Part shown: positions 3 to 22,851 of the stretch, piece after piece
Layout: each line of letters begins with the position of its first letter
How positions within the stretch are numbered: the stretch's first letter is position 1
DNA from: Gemmatimonadota bacterium
GTDB lineage: Bacteria > Gemmatimonadota > Gemmatimonadetes > Gemmatimonadales > GWC2-71-9
Length of the DNA: 64,000 nt
NCBI GenBank assembly: GCA_041497135.1
Contig: JBGQFX010000005.1
Span: forward strand, 27,683-91,682
Direction: 5' to 3'
Program-made: the position numbers and the translations under genes
Notes under the pieces: generated by a model
Database searches by the model: none
The model's input: only the letters and a program-made list of their open reading frames with translations
What the model was told of the DNA's origin: nothing

Positions 3-380
3 GGGGTGCTCATGTCGCCCGAGCTGCCGCTCACGCGCCGGCAGCACGAGATGATCACTACCATGGTGTCCGTCACCAACCGGTGTCGCTACTGAATCAC
101 CTCCCACGCAGAGTTTCTGCGTCGGGTCACACTGGATGCAGCGCTGGTGGCGGCGCTGGAGGACGACTACACCAAGGCCTCCATCCCGGCGCAGGACCGG
201 GTCATGCTGGATTACGTGGTGCAGCTGACGCGCGACGCCACGCGCATCGGGCCGGCGCATCACGACGGCCTGCGTGCGGCGGGCTTCGACGACCGCGCCA
301 TCTTGCAGATCACGCTGATCGCCTCCTGGTTCAACTACATCAACCGCGTGGCCGACGCGCTGGGCGTGGGCCGAGACTGA
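3..380 (+). CDS. AhpD/carboxymuconolactone-decarboxylase (CMD) family peroxidase-related protein, 5'-partial, containing an in-frame UGA (candidate selenocysteine) at 93-95
   Basis: Frame 3 reads ...[36 protein letters not shown]... and continues without break into the listed 147..380 ORF (...[21 protein letters not shown]). This matches the N-x-C-x-Y-C-x-x-x-H CMD motif, with TGA at the second Cys. Confidence 0.75.
93..126 (+). other. UGA (putative Sec codon) plus SECIS-like hairpin
   Basis: TGA at 93-95. Hairpin 103-126 is CCCACGCAGA-GTT-TCTGCGT(C)GGG, a 7 bp + 3 bp stem with one bulged C. Its apical loop lies 18-20 nt after the UGA. Confidence 0.5.
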
Positions 381-4622: not shown

Positions 4623-5780
4623 TTAGAACCACTTGTGTAGCCACCGCTTTTCGAACAGCACCTTGCCGAGGTGCCACCAGCGACTTGGCGGGTGGAGCCT
4701 TATCGCCGGCGTCGGTTCAGCGTAGAAGTCGCCGCTGCCAAAGCCCGCCTTTCCGCCGCCGGCCTCGATGAAGCACGAGCCGTGGCCGTCGAACCGCGCG
4801 CTTTCACCCCGATTCATCCAGGCACGGGCGAGATTCCGCGCCACGACTTCGGCTTGGCCGTGGGCAAATACCCCTGCCTTGGGAAGGGGCTTGCCGAGCT
4901 TGAGCGGGATCGCCGTCACGTCCCCCAACGCGTAGACGAACGGGAAACGCGTTTCGAGGGTATGCCGGTCGACCGTGATCCAGCCGCTCTCACCCGCGAG
5001 CCCGCTCTCCCGTACGACGGCGGGTGCCCGATGTGGCGGGACGTAGAGGAGCAGATCGTACTCGGCCGTTGTGCCGTTGGTAAACGCGATCCGTCGGCTC
5101 GTGCCGTCCACCGACTGCACCTGGTGCTCGGGGTGGTAGTGGACGCCCTTGTGTTCCACCATCTGCCGGACGGCGGCAGAGACCTGCGGTCCTGCGACAC
5201 CCATCGGGCCGGGCTCGGCGGCATAGAAATCGACTTGCACGTCATCCCGAATGCCGCGTCGCCGGAACTCGCCTTCGATCAGCATGGCTGCCTCGTAGGG
5301 CGCCGCCGGGCACTTGTAGGCCGGAGCGGCGGTGAGCACTACGACACGGCCACCTGAAAACTGCCGGAGCGCGTCCCGCAACGCGGTCGCGCCTTGCAGG
5401 TTGTAGAGGTTGTGACCGGCTTGCCCTAATCCAGGGATTTGGTCGGGCGCAAGGTCCGCGCCCAGTGCAATCACGACCGCATCGGCCCTCAATTGCCGTC
5501 CAGAGACCCGAGCGGTCCTCTCGGCTGGATCGATCCGTTCGATCTCCCCGTGGACGACGTCGATCCCTTTGCGCTGCAGCCGATCCAGCGGGCGACGGAT
5601 CTGCTCCGGCTCCCGTTGTCCGATCATCAGCCAGAGGAGGGAGGGTTGAAAGAGGTGGTGGCGCTCTCGGTCGATGAGGACGACACGGTGGTCCATCGGC
5701 AGATAACTCCGAAGGCGATGGGCTGCGACCACGCCGCCCACGCCACCGCCGAGTACGAGCACGGATTTCCGGTCAGCCAT
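4623..5780 (-). CDS. sqr: sulfide:quinone oxidoreductase-like FAD-dependent pyridine nucleotide-disulfide oxidoreductase
   Basis: VLVLGGGVGGVVAA (FAD GxGxxG), AAPAYKCPAAPYEAA and HGSCFIE Cys motifs, YALGDVTAIP. GAGGAGG SD. Confidence 0.8.
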   Translation of the reverse strand: MADRKSVLVLGGGVGGVVAAHRLRSYLPMDHRVVLIDRERHHLFQPSLLWLMIGQREPEQIRRPLDRLQRKGIDVVHGEIERIDPAERTARVSGRQLRADAVVIALGADLAPDQIPGLGQAGHNLYNLQGATALRDALRQFSGGRVVVLTAAPAYKCPAAPYEAAMLIEGEFRRRGIRDDVQVDFYAAEPGPMGVAGPQVSAAVRQMVEHKGVHYHPEHQVQSVDGTSRRIAFTNGTTAEYDLLLYVPPHRAPAVVRESGLAGESGWITVDRHTLETRFPFVYALGDVTAIPLKLGKPLPKAGVFAHGQAEVVARNLARAWMNRGESARFDGHGSCFIEAGGGKAGFGSGDFYAEPTPAIRLHPPSRWWHLGKVLFEKRWLHKWF

Positions 5781-10199: not shown

Positions 10200-11861
10200 T
10201 CAGACCGTTTGCAGATACCGGTGAATCATGCCCACCGCCGCCGATCCTTCCCCCACTGCCGAGGCCACGCGCTTGGTGGAGCCGAGTCGGACGTCGCCGG
10301 CGGCGAAGATGCCGGGCAGGCTGGTTTCCAGCGGGAACGGATCGCGATCGAGCGTCCATCCCTTCGGTCGCCTGCCGTCCTTCAGCAGATCGGGACCGGT
10401 GACGATGAAGCCCGTCTCGTCCCGCTCCACGAGACCCGCGACCATGCCGGATTGCGGGGTCGAGCCGATGAGCACGAACATCGCCGCCGCGGGCAGCGTG
10501 GTGCGCTCGCCGGCATCGTCGCGCACGAGCTCGACTGCTTCGAGCCGGCCAATCCCACGCACACCGGCCACGGCGGTGTGCGTCCGCACCTCGATGTTGC
10601 CCGCGGCTTCGATGCGATCGATCAAGTACGTGGACATCGTGGCCTGGAGCGACGCGCCGCGGACGACCATCGTCACCTTGGCGGCATAGCGGGCGAAGAG
10701 CAAGGCGGCTTGTCCGGCGGAATTGGCGCCCCCGATGATGACGACCTCGGCCCCCCGGCAGGCGGCCGCTTCCGACAGGGCCGCGCCGTAATAGACGCCG
10801 GCCCCGGTGAGTGCCTCCACACCGGGCACATCGAGCCGCCGAACCTGCATCCCGGTCGCGAGCAGCAACGCATAGCACTGCAGCTCTGATCCGTCGTCGA
10901 GCGTCACGATCCGGTAGGGATGCTCGGCGCGGATCGCAGCGACGCCCCGCGCCGTGACGACCTCCGCGCCAAACCGCCGGGCCTGCGTCGTCGCCCGTCG
11001 CGCCAGGTCCGCTCCGGCGATGCCGCCCGGGAAGCCGAGGTAGTTCTCGATCTGTGAGCTGGTACCCGCCTGCCCGCCCGTCACGTCCAGCTCGATCAGG
11101 ATCGTGCGTAACCCCTCGGACGCACCGTAGACCGCGGCGGCCAGGCCGCTCGGGCCGCCACCGACGACGATGAGATCGTAGAACGGATTCCGCGCCTCGG
11201 TCTGCAGGCCAATCCGCTCGGCCAGCTCCCGGGTGGTGGGCGCCAGCAGCGTCGTGCCATCAGGAAAGAAGACGACCGGTTGCCGCTTGAGGCCCGGCGT
11301 CAGCGTCTCGACCAGCGCGCGCGTCGCCCCGTCGGTGTCCAGATCGATCCATGCGTACGGCGTCTGCGTGCGGGCAAGAAAATCCCTCAGCTCGTGACTC
11401 CGGGGCGACCAGCGTGAGCCCGCGACCCGGATGCCGTCGAACGGCGGCCGGAACGTCGCGGCCCAGTCGGCCAGCACATCGTCCAGCACGGGGTACAAGT
11501 GCTGCTCCGGCGGATCCCACGGTTTCATCAGGTAGTGATCGAGCCCGACTTCGTTGATGCCGCGGATCGCCGCCTCGCTGTCGGCGTAGGCGGTCAGCAG
11601 CACCTTGCGCGACTCCGGGTGCAGCGTGCGGACCTCGCGCAGCAGCTCGGTCCCCGTCATGCCGGGCATCCGCTCGTCCACGAGAAATAGGGCGATCGGC
11701 GTCCCGCGCTGCTTCAGCTCCCGCGCGGCTTCGAGCGCTTCGCGGCCGGAGCCGGCTTTGAGGATGCGGTAGTCGCTCTGGAAGTGTTCGCGCAGATCGC
11801 GCTCGATGGCGGCCAGCACCAGGGCGTCGTCGTCGACGCTCAGGATCACGGGTTTGGCCAC
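10200..11861 (-). CDS. fused response regulator / thioredoxin-reductase-like FAD oxidoreductase
   Basis: REC domain (VILSVDDD...LFLVDERMPGMTG...LLTAYAD), a Trx-fold-like linker without CxxC (GSRWSPRSHELRDFL), and a TrxB-like FAD/NAD domain (DLIVVGGGPSGLAAAVY...GGANSAGQAA...GIFAAGDVR) that lacks the CxxC redox pair. Confidence 0.9.
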   Translation of the reverse strand: MAKPVILSVDDDALVLAAIERDLREHFQSDYRILKAGSGREALEAARELKQRGTPIALFLVDERMPGMTGTELLREVRTLHPESRKVLLTAYADSEAAIRGINEVGLDHYLMKPWDPPEQHLYPVLDDVLADWAATFRPPFDGIRVAGSRWSPRSHELRDFLARTQTPYAWIDLDTDGATRALVETLTPGLKRQPVVFFPDGTTLLAPTTRELAERIGLQTEARNPFYDLIVVGGGPSGLAAAVYGASEGLRTILIELDVTGGQAGTSSQIENYLGFPGGIAGADLARRATTQARRFGAEVVTARGVAAIRAEHPYRIVTLDDGSELQCYALLLATGMQVRRLDVPGVEALTGAGVYYGAALSEAAACRGAEVVIIGGANSAGQAALLFARYAAKVTMVVRGASLQATMSTYLIDRIEAAGNIEVRTHTAVAGVRGIGRLEAVELVRDDAGERTTLPAAAMFVLIGSTPQSGMVAGLVERDETGFIVTGPDLLKDGRRPKGWTLDRDPFPLETSLPGIFAAGDVRLGSTKRVASAVGEGSAAVGMIHRYLQTV

Positions 11862-18949: not shown

Positions 18950-20275
18950 ATGATGAGACACGTGGTGAGAGCGATGTGCGTGGGCTGGCTCGTCGGTGCG
19001 GGCGCCTGCGTGGAGACCGATCGTTTGCTCCCGCAACCACCGTCGCTGGATGCCGAGCTGCGGCAGTCGCTGCCGCAGTGGGGGGTGGTCCCGATCAACG
19101 CGCAACCGGTCCAGGATCCGTCGCTGGTCGCGCTCGGTCAGGCGTTGTTCTTCGACAAGGTGCTGAGCGGTAACCGCGACATTGCCTGCGCGACGTGTCA
19201 CAACCCAGCCACGGCGATGGGCGACGGCCAGTCGCTGGCGGTCGGCACCGGCGGCACCGGCGTCGGCCCCGCGCGCACGCTGGGCCCGGGACGGCAATTC
19301 GTGCCCCGCAATGCACCGACGTTGCTCAATGTGGCGCTTGGCCTTCCATATGTGTTCTGGGATGGCCGGGTAACGGGCTTCGCGGGCCAGTTCCAGACGC
19401 CAGCCGGCGCGGCATTGCCTCCCGGATTGCCCAGCATCCTCGCGGCGCAGGCGATGTTCCCGGTCACCAACCGCACCGAGATGCGCGGGGAGCCCGGCGA
19501 TGCGGATGTGCTCGGGAAGCCCAATGAGCTGGCACAGTACGGCGACAGCCAGTGGACCGAGATCTGGCGCGCGGTGATGCTCCGGCTGCTCGCGATCCCC
19601 GCCTACACGGCCAGATTCAGCGCCGCGTTCCCGGGTACGCCCACGAATCAGCTCGGCTTCCAGCACGCAGCCGCAGCGATCGCCGCGTACGAGACGCAGG
19701 TGCTCACGAGAACCGATTCACCATTCGACCGGTATCTGAAGCGGGACGATGACGCCTTGACGGCGGAACAAAAGCGCGGTGCGTTGCTCTTTTTCGGGAA
19801 GGCGACCTGCTCGAGCTGCCACAACGGCCCGCAGCTCGGTGCCGGGAACTTCGTCGACGTCGGCGTACCGCAGCTCGGGCCGGGCGTGGGCCCCGAGCCG
19901 CCGCTCGATCTCGGGCGCGGCGCGCTCCCCGACAACGAGTTCTATCGCTTCGCGTTCCGCGTAGCCCCGCTGCGCAACGTCGAGCTGACGGCGCCCTACT
20001 TCCACGATGGGGCCTACCCGACGCTCGAGGCCGTAGTGCGGCACTACAACGACGTCCGGGTGGCGCTGTCGGGGTTCGACGCGGCTCAACTGGCGCCGGA
20101 CCTGCGCGCCACCTATCACGGTGACGCCGCCACGGTCGTCGCAGTGCTCGAGCGACTGGACTTCCGCCTGCAGCAGCCGCTGCGCCTCACCGAGACAGAG
20201 CGCGCCGAGCTGGTGGCGTTTCTCAAGGCGCTCACCGATCCGTCGGCACGGGACCTGAGCGCGCTGGTGCCCTAG
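18950..20275 (+). CDS. di-haem cytochrome c peroxidase (CCP/MauG family)
   Basis: Two CxxCH haem motifs (CATCHNP, CSSCHNG), conserved ...PLRNVELTAPYFHDG... GAGGAG SD. N-terminal signal/lipoprotein-like. Confidence 0.9.
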   Translation: MMRHVVRAMCVGWLVGAGACVETDRLLPQPPSLDAELRQSLPQWGVVPINAQPVQDPSLVALGQALFFDKVLSGNRDIACATCHNPATAMGDGQSLAVGTGGTGVGPARTLGPGRQFVPRNAPTLLNVALGLPYVFWDGRVTGFAGQFQTPAGAALPPGLPSILAAQAMFPVTNRTEMRGEPGDADVLGKPNELAQYGDSQWTEIWRAVMLRLLAIPAYTARFSAAFPGTPTNQLGFQHAAAAIAAYETQVLTRTDSPFDRYLKRDDDALTAEQKRGALLFFGKATCSSCHNGPQLGAGNFVDVGVPQLGPGVGPEPPLDLGRGALPDNEFYRFAFRVAPLRNVELTAPYFHDGAYPTLEAVVRHYNDVRVALSGFDAAQLAPDLRATYHGDAATVVAVLERLDFRLQQPLRLTETERAELVAFLKALTDPSARDLSALVP

Positions 20276-20784
20276 CGGCGCACGCCGTGTTGCACCGGCG
20301 CCTGCACGTGCGCCTCGACGAACCACAGCCACTTGTCGATGCCGCGCGAGATCTCGGTGCAGATGTCCGCGCTGCCGGCGTCGCCCAACTCGTCGGTTTC
20401 GTCGATCGCCTTGCGGATGCGCGACCCGAATTCCGCCAGGGCGCCCGCGAAGGCGCCGGCATGGTCCGCGCCATCCGCGATGGTGCGCGGGTAGTCGGTG
20501 AGCTCGGTGCGTCCGGCGACCATTCGGACCGTGCCTTCCGCGATGCCGCCGACCTGCACCACACGCTCGGCCAGGAGGTCCGCGTACTCGCTCACTGCGG
20601 CGCGCACTTCGTCGAACAGCTTGTGCAGCGCGATGAACTGCGGACCCTTCACATTCCAGTGTGCCTGCTTGGCTTGTGAGGCCAGATCCACGGCGTCTGC
20701 CAGACGCTCGTTCAAGAGATCGGCGACCTGCGCCCGGGTGGTCTCGGGGAGATCGTTGCTGGTTTCGTACACGATGCTGGACAC
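20272..20784 (-). CDS. dps: Dps (DNA starvation/stationary-phase protection) ferritin-like protein
   Basis: QAKQAHWNVKGPQFIALHKLFDE...AERVVQVGG...DE.DELGD..SADI. GGAGG SD before the GTG. Confidence 0.9.
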   Translation of the reverse strand: MSSIVYETSNDLPETTRAQVADLLNERLADAVDLASQAKQAHWNVKGPQFIALHKLFDEVRAAVSEYADLLAERVVQVGGIAEGTVRMVAGRTELTDYPRTIADGADHAGAFAGALAEFGSRIRKAIDETDELGDAGSADICTEISRGIDKWLWFVEAHVQAPVQHGVRR

Positions 20785-20949
20785 GTTGGCCTCCGGGGTG
20801 ATCGACGCTAGGTCTCTGCGTAGCCGAACGGTGCCTGTTTGTGTCTGAGGTTATTGCCAATCCTCGATGAGGAATTCGTGCTGTCGCTGGACCGGTTGCC
20901 CCGAGCTTGTCGCGTGGGCATTATTTGCGGGTCCACTCGAGAGCAAGGT

Positions 20950-22851
20950 ATGGCGCTGACTCGCTTAATCGAACCGCTGGTCCGTGACAAGGGCGTCCTT
21001 CGCCAGGCTACCTGGGAGGAAGCGTTGGACCGGGCCGCCGATGGCTTCCGCCGCGTGAAGACGCAGTATGACGGTGACGCCATCGGCACGTTCAGCTGCT
21101 CCAAGGCCAGCAATGAGATGAATTTTCTGGCCGCGAAGCTGAGCCGCGTCGTGTTCGGGACACACAACATCGACAGCTGCAACCGGACGTGACACGCTCC
21201 TAGCGTCGTCGGTCTGGCGACAGTGTTTGGCGCCGGTGGAGGCACCAGCTCCTACCGTGAAGTGGAAGAGACGGACGTCATCTTCCTGTGGGGAGCGAAC
21301 GCCCGGGAAAACCACCCTATTTTTTTCCATCACGTCCTGAAGGGCGTGCACCGGGGCGCACGGCTGTACGCCGTTGACCCGCGGCGCACCTCCTCGGCGC
21401 AATGGGCCGACGAGTGGCTCGGCATCCACGTGGGCACGGACATCGCGCTCGCCAATGCGATGGCGCGCGAGATCATCCACGCCGGGCTCGTGAACGAGGC
21501 ATTCATCAAGCATGCGACGATAGGGTTCGACGCATACCGCGACGGCGTCGAGCGTTACACGCTGGCGTATGCCGAACGGGAAACCGGGGTCCCGGCCGAC
21601 GTGATCCGCCGCGCCGCGCTCGCGTATGCGCGCGCCGACCGGGCGATCATCTGCTGGACGCTGGGCATCACCGAGCACCACAACGCGGTCGACAACGTGC
21701 TCGCGCTGATCAACCTGGCGCTCCTGACGGGCCATGTGGGACGCTACGGCTCGGGTGTCAACCCGCTGCGGGGACAGAACAACGTCCAGGGCGGTGGGGA
21801 CATGGGTGCCATCCCGAACCGCCTCGTGGGATTCCAGGACTGGACCACGGACCCCGAGGTGCGCGCCAAGTTCGAGCGCGCCTGGGGCGTGGCGCTCAAG
21901 CCCGAGTACGGCAAGAACCTCACGATGATGTTCGAGGCGATGGAACATGGCGAGCTCAAGGCGGTCTACGCCATCGGTGAGAACCCGGCGCTGTCCGAAG
22001 CGGACCAGCACCGTGCGCAAAGGCTGCTCGCCGGCCTCGAGCACCTCGTCGTACAGGACATCTTCCTCACCAAGACGGCCGAATTTGCCCACGTCGTGCT
22101 GCCGGCGTCGTCGAGCTGGTGTGAAGCCGAGGGCACAGTCACCAACAGCGAGCGACGCGTGCAGCGCATGCGGCCGGCACTCACCCCGCCCGGCAACGCG
22201 CGCGACGACATCGGCATCATCGTCGAGATCGCCCGGCGGCTCGGCCATGAGTGGGGTCAGCCCAGTGCGGAACAGATCTGGAACGAGGTACGAAGTCTGG
22301 CACCGATGTTCGCGGGCATGAGTTACGAGCGGCTGGAGCAGGAGGGCGGGCTGCAGTGGCCCTGCTACGACGAGAATCATCCGGGGGAGCTGTTTCTCCA
22401 CGGCCGCCTCTGGCAGGAGCCGCGTGAGGGCCCGCCGGCGCCCTTCTCCGTGGTGGAGCATGACCCGCCGCTAGAGCGGCCCGATGCGGAGTATCCCTTC
22501 ACGCTGACCACCGGGCGGCGGCTGGATTCGTACAACACCGGCGTGCAGACCGCCGGGTACAAGTCGCCGCTGCGGCGCGGGGAGACACTCGACATTTCGC
22601 CGGAGGACGCGGACCGCCTCGGTCTAGCGGACGGCGACCGCGTGCGCGTGACGTCCCGGCGTGGCAGTGTGGTCGCTCCGGCGCACCTGGACCGCGGGTT
22701 GCGGCCCGGCCTCGTCTTCATGACGTTGCACTTCCAGGACGACGTGACCACCAACGTGCTGACCGTCGATTACACCGACCCGAAATCGGGCACGGCCGAG
22801 TTCAAGGCTTGCGCCGTGCAGGTCACGCCGCTTGGATCTTCGACTTCCTGA
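20950..22851 (+). CDS. formate dehydrogenase catalytic (Mo/W-bisPGD) polypeptide, selenocysteine-containing. It lacks the N-terminal Fe-S domains, which are encoded separately at 24640..25605.
   Basis: Two same-frame track ORFs are joined by TGA 21190-21192: ...VVFGTHNIDSCNRT-U-HAPSVVGLATVFGAGGGT... (compare E. coli FdhF NNVDCCARVUHGPSVAGL). The N-terminus MALTRLIEPLVRDKGVLRQATWEEALD aligns just after the Fe4S4 motif of FdhF. Confidence 0.9.
21190..21221 (+). other. UGA (Sec) codon and fdhF-type SECIS stem-loop
   Basis: TGA CAC GCT CCT AGC then GTCGTC-GGTCT-GGCGAC (21205-21221): 6-bp stem including one G-U, with loop GGUCU. Position and loop resemble the E. coli fdhF SECIS (..GCAGGUCUGC..). 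Confidence 0.7.

Follow-up and report, generated by a model that had tools for sequence, protein, structure and literature searches.

The window considered here, a stretch of 64,000 nucleotides (nt) from a Gemmatimonadota bacterium (contig JBGQFX010000005.1), begins inside a gene that encodes an AhpD-like protein and that contains an in-frame TGA at positions 93–95. This TGA is very probably a selenocysteine (Sec) codon, served by a selenocysteine insertion sequence (SECIS) hairpin that lies just downstream (probability of about 0.9). The TGA is paired with a cysteine codon in homologues, the protein reads on through it, a nucleotide constraint specific to the hairpin follows it, and the product belongs to a defined protein family.

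The original prediction, which was made from the sequence alone, proposed that frame 3 crosses TGA 93–95 and runs into the open reading frame (ORF) at 147..380. The translation confirms this: the frame is open from the window edge through TGA 93–95 to the terminator, a second TGA at 378–380. It reads TNRCRY upstream and ITSHAEFL downstream of the first TGA, and the C-terminus of the protein is ADALGVGRD. The gene was also said to have been truncated by the ORF caller, and indeed the mechanical ORF list holds, for this gene, only the 147..380 piece, 77 aa long from a GTG. The window contains the C-terminal 125 of about 188 codons; the N-terminal 63 or so lie beyond the edge. An orthologue in a genome labelled uncultured Gemmatimonadaceae (locus L001) is 188 aa long, starts with MTWIRTIPL and is 93% identical to the window protein. 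The nucleotide similarity between the two loci is about 92% inside the gene and collapses directly after 378–380, and in the alignment to 188-aa homologues the proteins stop at this same place. The annotation of a 77-aa ORF is to be replaced by that of a single gene about 188 codons long, in which codon 94 encodes Sec.

Related loci were collected in two scans. The first, with one genome per species, gave 80 loci (L001–L080) of 78–93% protein identity; the second, in soil metagenomes, was seeded with an alignment of Cys-form proteins and gave another 80. The homologous codon is TGA in 80/80 genome loci and, despite the Cys-form seeding, in 79 of the 80 metagenome loci, the last one having TGC. 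In total, 159 of 160 related loci from at least five phyla have TGA, with no other disruptions. The genome loci come from metagenome-assembled genomes (MAGs) labelled Gemmatimonadota, Acidobacteriota (Pyrinomonadaceae, Terriglobia, Thermoanaerobaculia and Blastocatellia), Planctomycetota, KSB1, Cytophagia (Bacteroidota-labelled) and Candidatus Cybelea (Eremiobacterota-labelled).

Upstream and downstream of the TGA alike, the protein sequence is conserved and the synonymous sites vary, with codon entropies of typically 1–2 bits. Over codons +1 to +94, the amino-acid identity is mostly 0.9–1.0 and the synonymous entropy 0.4–2.4 bits (81 TGA genes from the genome set plus the window, and 79 from the metagenome set). 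A conserved protein with free synonymous sites on either side indicates that translation continues through the TGA, and that the locus is neither a pseudogene nor a pair of ORFs. The termination of orthologues at the TGA, which the original prediction had set beforehand as a refuting observation, was not seen, since the TGA is kept and the sequence downstream of it is conserved. If the TGA were a true stop, the locus would be a pseudogene, or would encode an N-terminal fragment of 93 aa and a 77-aa peptide re-initiated at GTG 147. This is exactly the split that mechanical ORF calling gives, and the hairpin of this single sequence is not statistically significant (see below). A true stop is nevertheless almost certainly wrong: it would have had to persist at 159 of 160 independent loci from different phyla, and the catalytic Cys and the relay His would no longer be on one chain. 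Moreover, the codons between the TGA and GTG 147 (+1 to +17) are conserved in amino acid with synonymous variation, and a pseudogene would not keep 78–93% protein identity from one phylum to another.

When U is read as C, the 125-residue fragment matches the NCBIfam family TIGR01926, 'peroxidase-related enzyme', with 100.7 bits (curated cutoff 81.8) over profile positions 56–173 of 178, and the Pfam CMD family PF02627 with 43.1 bits vs 23. Membership of two other families was rejected: NF041238 (AhpD_rel_CFYUT), with 56.4 bits vs a cutoff of 175 and a CRYU motif instead of CFYUT, and NF053654 (YciW-related (seleno)protein), with 26.7 bits vs a cutoff of 310. The relay motif is present as E-x11-C-R-Y-U-I-T-S-H, in which U is the second Cys of E-x11-C-x-Y-C-x3-H. 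The closest solved relatives, based on sequence alignment only, are the structural-genomics PDB entries 2pfx, 3c1l, 2prr and 2oyo, named 'uncharacterized peroxidase-related proteins', and the Deinococcus AhpD 6k40 (E=2e-20 to 3e-16); the AhpD of Mycobacterium tuberculosis (MtAhpD) was not recovered by sequence search at E<=0.01. In 2pfx, 3c1l and 2prr, the residue aligned to TGA 93–95 is the second Cys of NxCxYCxxxH. Cys-form DNA was available as a control from seven loci (L081 and L161–L166), mostly obtained by individual look-ups, and all have TGC at the homologous codon. The protein alignment, the PDB entries and these loci agree with the earlier proposal that the TGA sits at the second Cys of N-x-C-x-Y-C-x-x-x-H, and Cys-containing homologues, which were to be checked for this, do align across it.

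In Sec/Cys pairs, Sec is usually found at the attacking position. The Glu/Cys/(His or Tyr)/Cys/His proton relay is known in MtAhpD and in PA0269 from Pseudomonas aeruginosa (PMC3141380), and in MtAhpD the exposed second Cys, Cys133, makes a disulfide with AhpC (PMC6626918). Because it is this exposed residue that bonds AhpC, the Sec at 93–95 would by analogy be at the attacking position, as the equivalent of Cys133.

Downstream of the TGA, codons +4 to +9 (His-Ala-Glu-Phe-Leu-Arg, CAC GCA GAG TTT CTG CGT, positions 105–122) are frozen at the nucleotide level in the TGA genes. Each is represented by a single codon in 80–81 of the 81 TGA genes of the genome set plus the window, and in 75–79 of the 79 TGA genes of the independent metagenome set; GCA, TTT and CGT are otherwise minority synonyms in TGA genes. 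Over the 159 genes, the mean synonymous entropy of these six codons is 0.08 bits, compared to a median of 1.31 bits (Mann-Whitney p=2e-5), and no degenerate codon outside 105–122 falls below 0.39 bits. In 150 unique sequences, the five inner pairs of the stem are present in 100%, the two terminal A-U pairs in 97–98%, and the loop is invariant. The spacing is constant, with no insertion or deletion between the UGA and the hairpin in 160 loci. The loss of the hairpin in orthologues that carry TGA, another refuting observation named in advance, was not found either: the element is nucleotide-invariant in essentially all TGA carriers.

For an identical or nearly identical peptide, the seven Cys-form loci use various codons (CAT/CAC, GCG/GCC/ACC, GAG/GAA, TTC/TTT, CTG/CTC and CGC/CGG/CGT/CGA), and the exact hairpin element occurs in none of them. 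The freeze being absent in the Cys forms, the nucleotide constraint is tied to the TGA. In two of the Cys forms (L161 and L165), the hairpin persists at codons +4 to +9 in a weakened form that includes G-U pairs (GCGGAGTTTCTGCG). It may be left over from a SECIS after a change from Sec to Cys, or reflect a coding sequence from which a SECIS evolves easily.

The minimum free energy is −14.3 kcal/mol for positions 90–140, −8.2 kcal/mol for the 17-nt core alone, and −13.6 to −15.8 kcal/mol in context. The larger hairpin originally proposed, at 103–126, was upheld in part: it folds as drawn and its 7-bp core is conserved, but its CCC/GGG extension is not. The 104–125 pair, the only extension pair free of coding constraint, is seen in just 43 of the 150 unique sequences, and on this ground the extension was not accepted as conserved; pairs 105–124 and 103–126 are held constant by the first two positions of codons, and hence uninformative.

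In Escherichia coli, the minimal SECIS spans 17 nt, folds into a stem-loop and lies about 11 nt downstream of the UGA. Published criteria for bacterial SECIS (bSECIS) elements are a loop of 3–9 nt, an upper stem of 4–16 bp, a distance of 16–37 nt from the UGA to the loop and a minimum free energy <= −7.5 kcal/mol, and a G as the first or second loop nucleotide, after which usually comes G or U (PMC13188914). The core hairpin agrees with all of these criteria, as it has a 3-nt GUU loop, a stem of 7 bp that starts 10 nt after the UGA, 17 nt between UGA and loop, and an energy of −8.2 kcal/mol. The loop nucleotides are thus 18–20 nt after A95, and the claim that this is the geometry of a bacterial SECIS is supported by the published values.

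The frozen 18 nt might serve a purpose other than that of a SECIS, for example as another RNA or protein binding site or as a translational pause, their proximity to the UGA being a coincidence. The structure is indeed unproven by covariation, and weaker versions of the hairpin are kept in the Cys forms L161 and L165. However, the freeze is confined to the TGA lineage and to its immediate TGG and TTA derivatives, and Cys forms that encode the identical peptide do without it. The constant distance to the UGA, the G-U of the loop and the sizes of stem and loop, which agree with the bSECIS model, also make such a role extremely unlikely.

Several observations could be set against Sec at this codon. 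Among the top 120 protein-database matches, the Sec column has 37 Cys, 76 Trp and 2 Leu. Two of the 'Trp' proteins, P0015 (L122) and P0022 (L169), were traced to a TGA in the DNA; the Trp evidently results from a code in which gene callers read TGA as Trp on short contigs. The idea that every such W stands for TGA is only partly right, because a third protein, P0035 (L167), has a true TGG, and the 'Leu' protein P0018 (L168) has TTA. Rare relatives have TGG, TTA or Ser at the Sec position (P0035, P0018, P0067 and P0014), and the hairpin is intact in both L167 and L168. No such variant occurs among the 160 DNA-level loci. They may stem from sequencing errors or recent inactivation, or be genuine variants. 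In P0014, the relay His is replaced by Asn as well.

Other points concern the hairpin and the Sec machinery. The fold of the single sequence is no exception among 200 shuffles (z=−1.35, 22/200 fold at least as well), and the significance of the hairpin therefore rests only on the comparison with relatives, since a single G+C-rich sequence does no better than its shuffled versions. No compensatory changes were found in the 150 unique sequences, in which the stem is invariant; because it never varies, pairing and sequence recognition are not separable. Rfam gave no SECIS-type match, either for the whole window at the gathering threshold or for 60–200 at E<=10. This negative result is uninformative, because the SECIS-like element of a formate dehydrogenase gene in the same window (21150–21300, E<=10) was missed too. 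No selA, selB or selD was found among about 39 ORFs scanned in the window (three ORFs longer than 1000 aa and several shorter than 250 aa were left out of the scan), and the tRNA search of the window found no tRNA-Sec, with 0 tRNAs in all. The missing sel genes are unsurprising for 64 kb. We know of no direct biochemical proof of selenium incorporation in the AhpD-like selenoprotein family.

The Trp matches, the TGG and TTA relatives with their intact hairpin and the fact that no Sec machinery was seen in the window could be taken to mean that the UGA is decoded otherwise, by near-cognate read-through as Trp or Cys or by a lineage-specific reassignment, the hairpin being a generic stimulator of read-through. 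Yet the gene's own terminator is also a TGA, at which the homologues end too, which excludes a general reassignment of UGA and means that its decoding depends on context. The Trp calls, as gene-caller artefacts, say nothing on decoding. The aligned residue is the catalytic Cys, as in a classic Sec/Cys pair, and Trp or Leu would lose the nucleophile. In addition, the hairpin matches the geometry and loop rule of a SelB-type bSECIS, and the window encodes a Sec-type formate dehydrogenase. Decoding as anything but Sec is thus very unlikely.

The Sec-type formate dehydrogenase, whose presence in the window had been put forward in the original prediction, was found again. It reads SCNRT*HAPSVVGL across TGA 21190–21192 and matches TIGR01591 with 663.2 bits, just below the cutoff of 666.25, the match beginning only at profile position 52. 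A hairpin (GUCGUC-GGUCU-GGCGAC) starts 12 nt after this UGA. The neighbouring genes encode a NuoE/F-like subunit and FdhD. The Sec-decoding capacity of the organism is suggested by this Sec-type enzyme and its hairpin, and the organism, probably a member of the Gemmatimonadaceae, appears to use selenium in at least two proteins, the AhpD-like protein and the formate dehydrogenase.

The following mechanism can be proposed. When the ribosome reaches UGA 93–95, SelB, with GTP and Sec-tRNA(Sec), would bind the hairpin at 106–122 and bring Sec, in place of release factor 2, to the UGA in the A site, and the hairpin-less UGA at 378–380 would lead to termination. The product would be an AhpD-like oxidoreductase of about 21 kDa with the CMD fold and a C-x-x-U redox centre, in which a solvent-exposed Sec is part of the Glu/Cys/Tyr/Sec/His proton-relay motif. 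The selenolate would attack an oxidised partner, either a sulfenate or disulfide of the peroxiredoxin type or a hydroperoxide, after which the selenenylsulfide would be resolved by the nearby Cys. The most likely activity is that of a thiol/selenol-disulfide oxidoreductase which reduces a peroxiredoxin-type partner or a hydroperoxide.

In the 125 Sec-form loci that have enough upstream DNA, the AhpD-like gene is directly preceded on the same strand by an APC-family amino-acid permease gene (PF13520/PF00324) in 61 cases. The two genes overlap by 4 nt in the loci inspected (the permease gene being at 1436–2815 in L001 and at 1280–2665 in L009). The same arrangement is found in several Cys-form loci, and the pair occurs at L161, L164, L165 and L168. 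The pair recurs across phyla; the corresponding region of the present contig is outside the window. No AhpC-like or peroxiredoxin gene is adjacent to the AhpD-like gene, be it in the window or at the other loci examined.

The protein identities of 78–93% between MAGs of different phyla are far above what is expected from vertical descent. They suggest a horizontal spread of the Sec-form gene, with errors in the binning of MAGs as another possibility. In soil Gemmatimonadota and Acidobacteriota, this AhpD-like clade occurs mostly in the Sec form. We tentatively propose, as a possibility that falls short of an even chance, that the clade is a horizontally spread, soil-dominant selenoprotein, with a Sec:Cys ratio of about 159:1 among the nearest relatives, which is mistranslated with Trp or truncated in public sets. 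If this is true, it may be one of the most abundant soil selenoproteins that have gone unrecognised, and its role could be tied to an imported amino-acid-like substrate and not to AhpC. Public protein sets hold the AhpD-like selenoprotein largely as a false Trp sequence, which is relevant to selenoproteome surveys and to the building of hidden Markov models. The value of the present analysis lies in a corrected annotation and in the evidence of mistranslation in public protein sets.

The coordinates of the AhpD-like gene, its hairpin and the formate dehydrogenase gene are collected below.

Table 1. Features of the AhpD-like gene and the formate dehydrogenase gene in the 64-kb window.
Feature	Position	Strand	Details
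5'-truncated coding part before the Sec codon	3..92	+	Relay Glu GAG 48–50; first Cys of CxxU TGT 84–86; from the translation
In-frame TGA, putative Sec codon	93..95	+	Second position of C-R-Y-U; from TGA conservation and Cys alignment
Coding part after the Sec codon	96..377	+	Relay His CAC 105–107; conserved C-terminal stretch; pattern of purifying selection
Core SECIS-like hairpin	106..122	+	5' arm ACGCAGA 106–112; loop GUU 113–115; 3' arm UCUGCGU 116–122
Extended hairpin, CCC/GGG with bulged C123	103..126	+	−13.6 kcal/mol; forms in the window, not conserved
Terminator of the gene, TGA	378..380	+	From homologue ends and similarity drop vs L001
Formate dehydrogenase alpha subunit	20950..22851	+	TGA 21190–21192; SCNRT-U-HAPSVVGL; TIGR01591

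The formate dehydrogenase alpha subunit is without the N-terminal 4Fe-4S part, and no obvious Cys-rich domain was seen upstream of its ATG at 20950 in the three + frames of 20200–21000. A gene for a MauG-like di-haem enzyme (18950–20275) lies directly upstream. The ORF at 4623–5780 on the − strand encodes a sulfide:quinone reductase (SQR)-like protein whose best NCBIfam match is 'type III SQR, selenoprotein subtype'; it was rejected as a second selenoprotein, because it is all-Cys, ends with TAA and reaches 249 bits vs a cutoff of 525. The ORF at 10200–11861, also on the − strand, combines a response-regulator-like part (residues 5–121) with a part like thioredoxin-disulfide reductase or AhpF (residues 225–550). 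This fusion is unusual, and the same window holds two redox selenoprotein genes.

Among characterised proteins, MtAhpD and PA0269 are all-Cys proteins of the CMD fold that have the same relay spacing, Glu-x11-Cys-x-(His/Tyr)-Cys-x3-His, as the window protein, which has Sec where they have Cys. The genetic context also differs from that of MtAhpD, in that no AhpC or peroxiredoxin gene adjoins the window gene or its examined counterparts. The solved relatives (2pfx, 3c1l, 2prr, 2oyo and 6k40) resemble the window protein in length class (188–197 aa) and in the NxCxYCxxxH motif, but all are Cys forms, of largely unassigned function.

The core hairpin is like the bSECISearch consensus and the SECIS of E. 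coli fdhF in that it has a small loop starting with G-U and a short G+C-rich upper stem, and like the bacterial SECIS consensus in that it is part of the coding sequence and has the canonical spacing to the UGA. Unlike the consensus and the fdhF element, it has no evident bulged U, its loop is just 3 nt long, and its lower stem is not conserved.

The Sargasso Sea data yielded 27 AhpD-like sequences (COG2128) with a CxxU motif, which were described as a selenoprotein family not known before (Zhang, Fomenko & Gladyshev 2005, PMC1088965). 'AhpD-like 1' was later counted among the most abundant selenoprotein families of the GOS data, with 299 Sec vs 902 Cys sequences (Zhang & Gladyshev 2008, PMC2398784), and AhpD-like selenoproteins also occur in a few genomes (PMC1794560). 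A review of 2026 has the entry 'AhpD-like protein | TIGR01926 | CxxU' (PMC13188914), and a database of the same year uses the family as a worked example (PMC13326102). Neither mentions Gemmatimonadota or Acidobacteriota, and soil is not mentioned in the review.

The window gene is a further member of this known family, and represents neither a new mechanism nor a new family. It shares with it the TIGR01926 model, a CxxU motif with Sec in second position, widespread Cys homologues, and a bSECIS-type hairpin directly downstream with a G in a small apical loop. Some modest novelty may lie in the soil context, the dominance of the Sec form among near relatives and a single frozen SECIS across phyla. 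The counts in the literature are based on marine metagenomes and a few genomes, whereas the present relatives belong to soil-type Gemmatimonadota, Acidobacteriota, Planctomycetota and others, and, unlike in the published account of the family, the clade carries one nucleotide-invariant hairpin.

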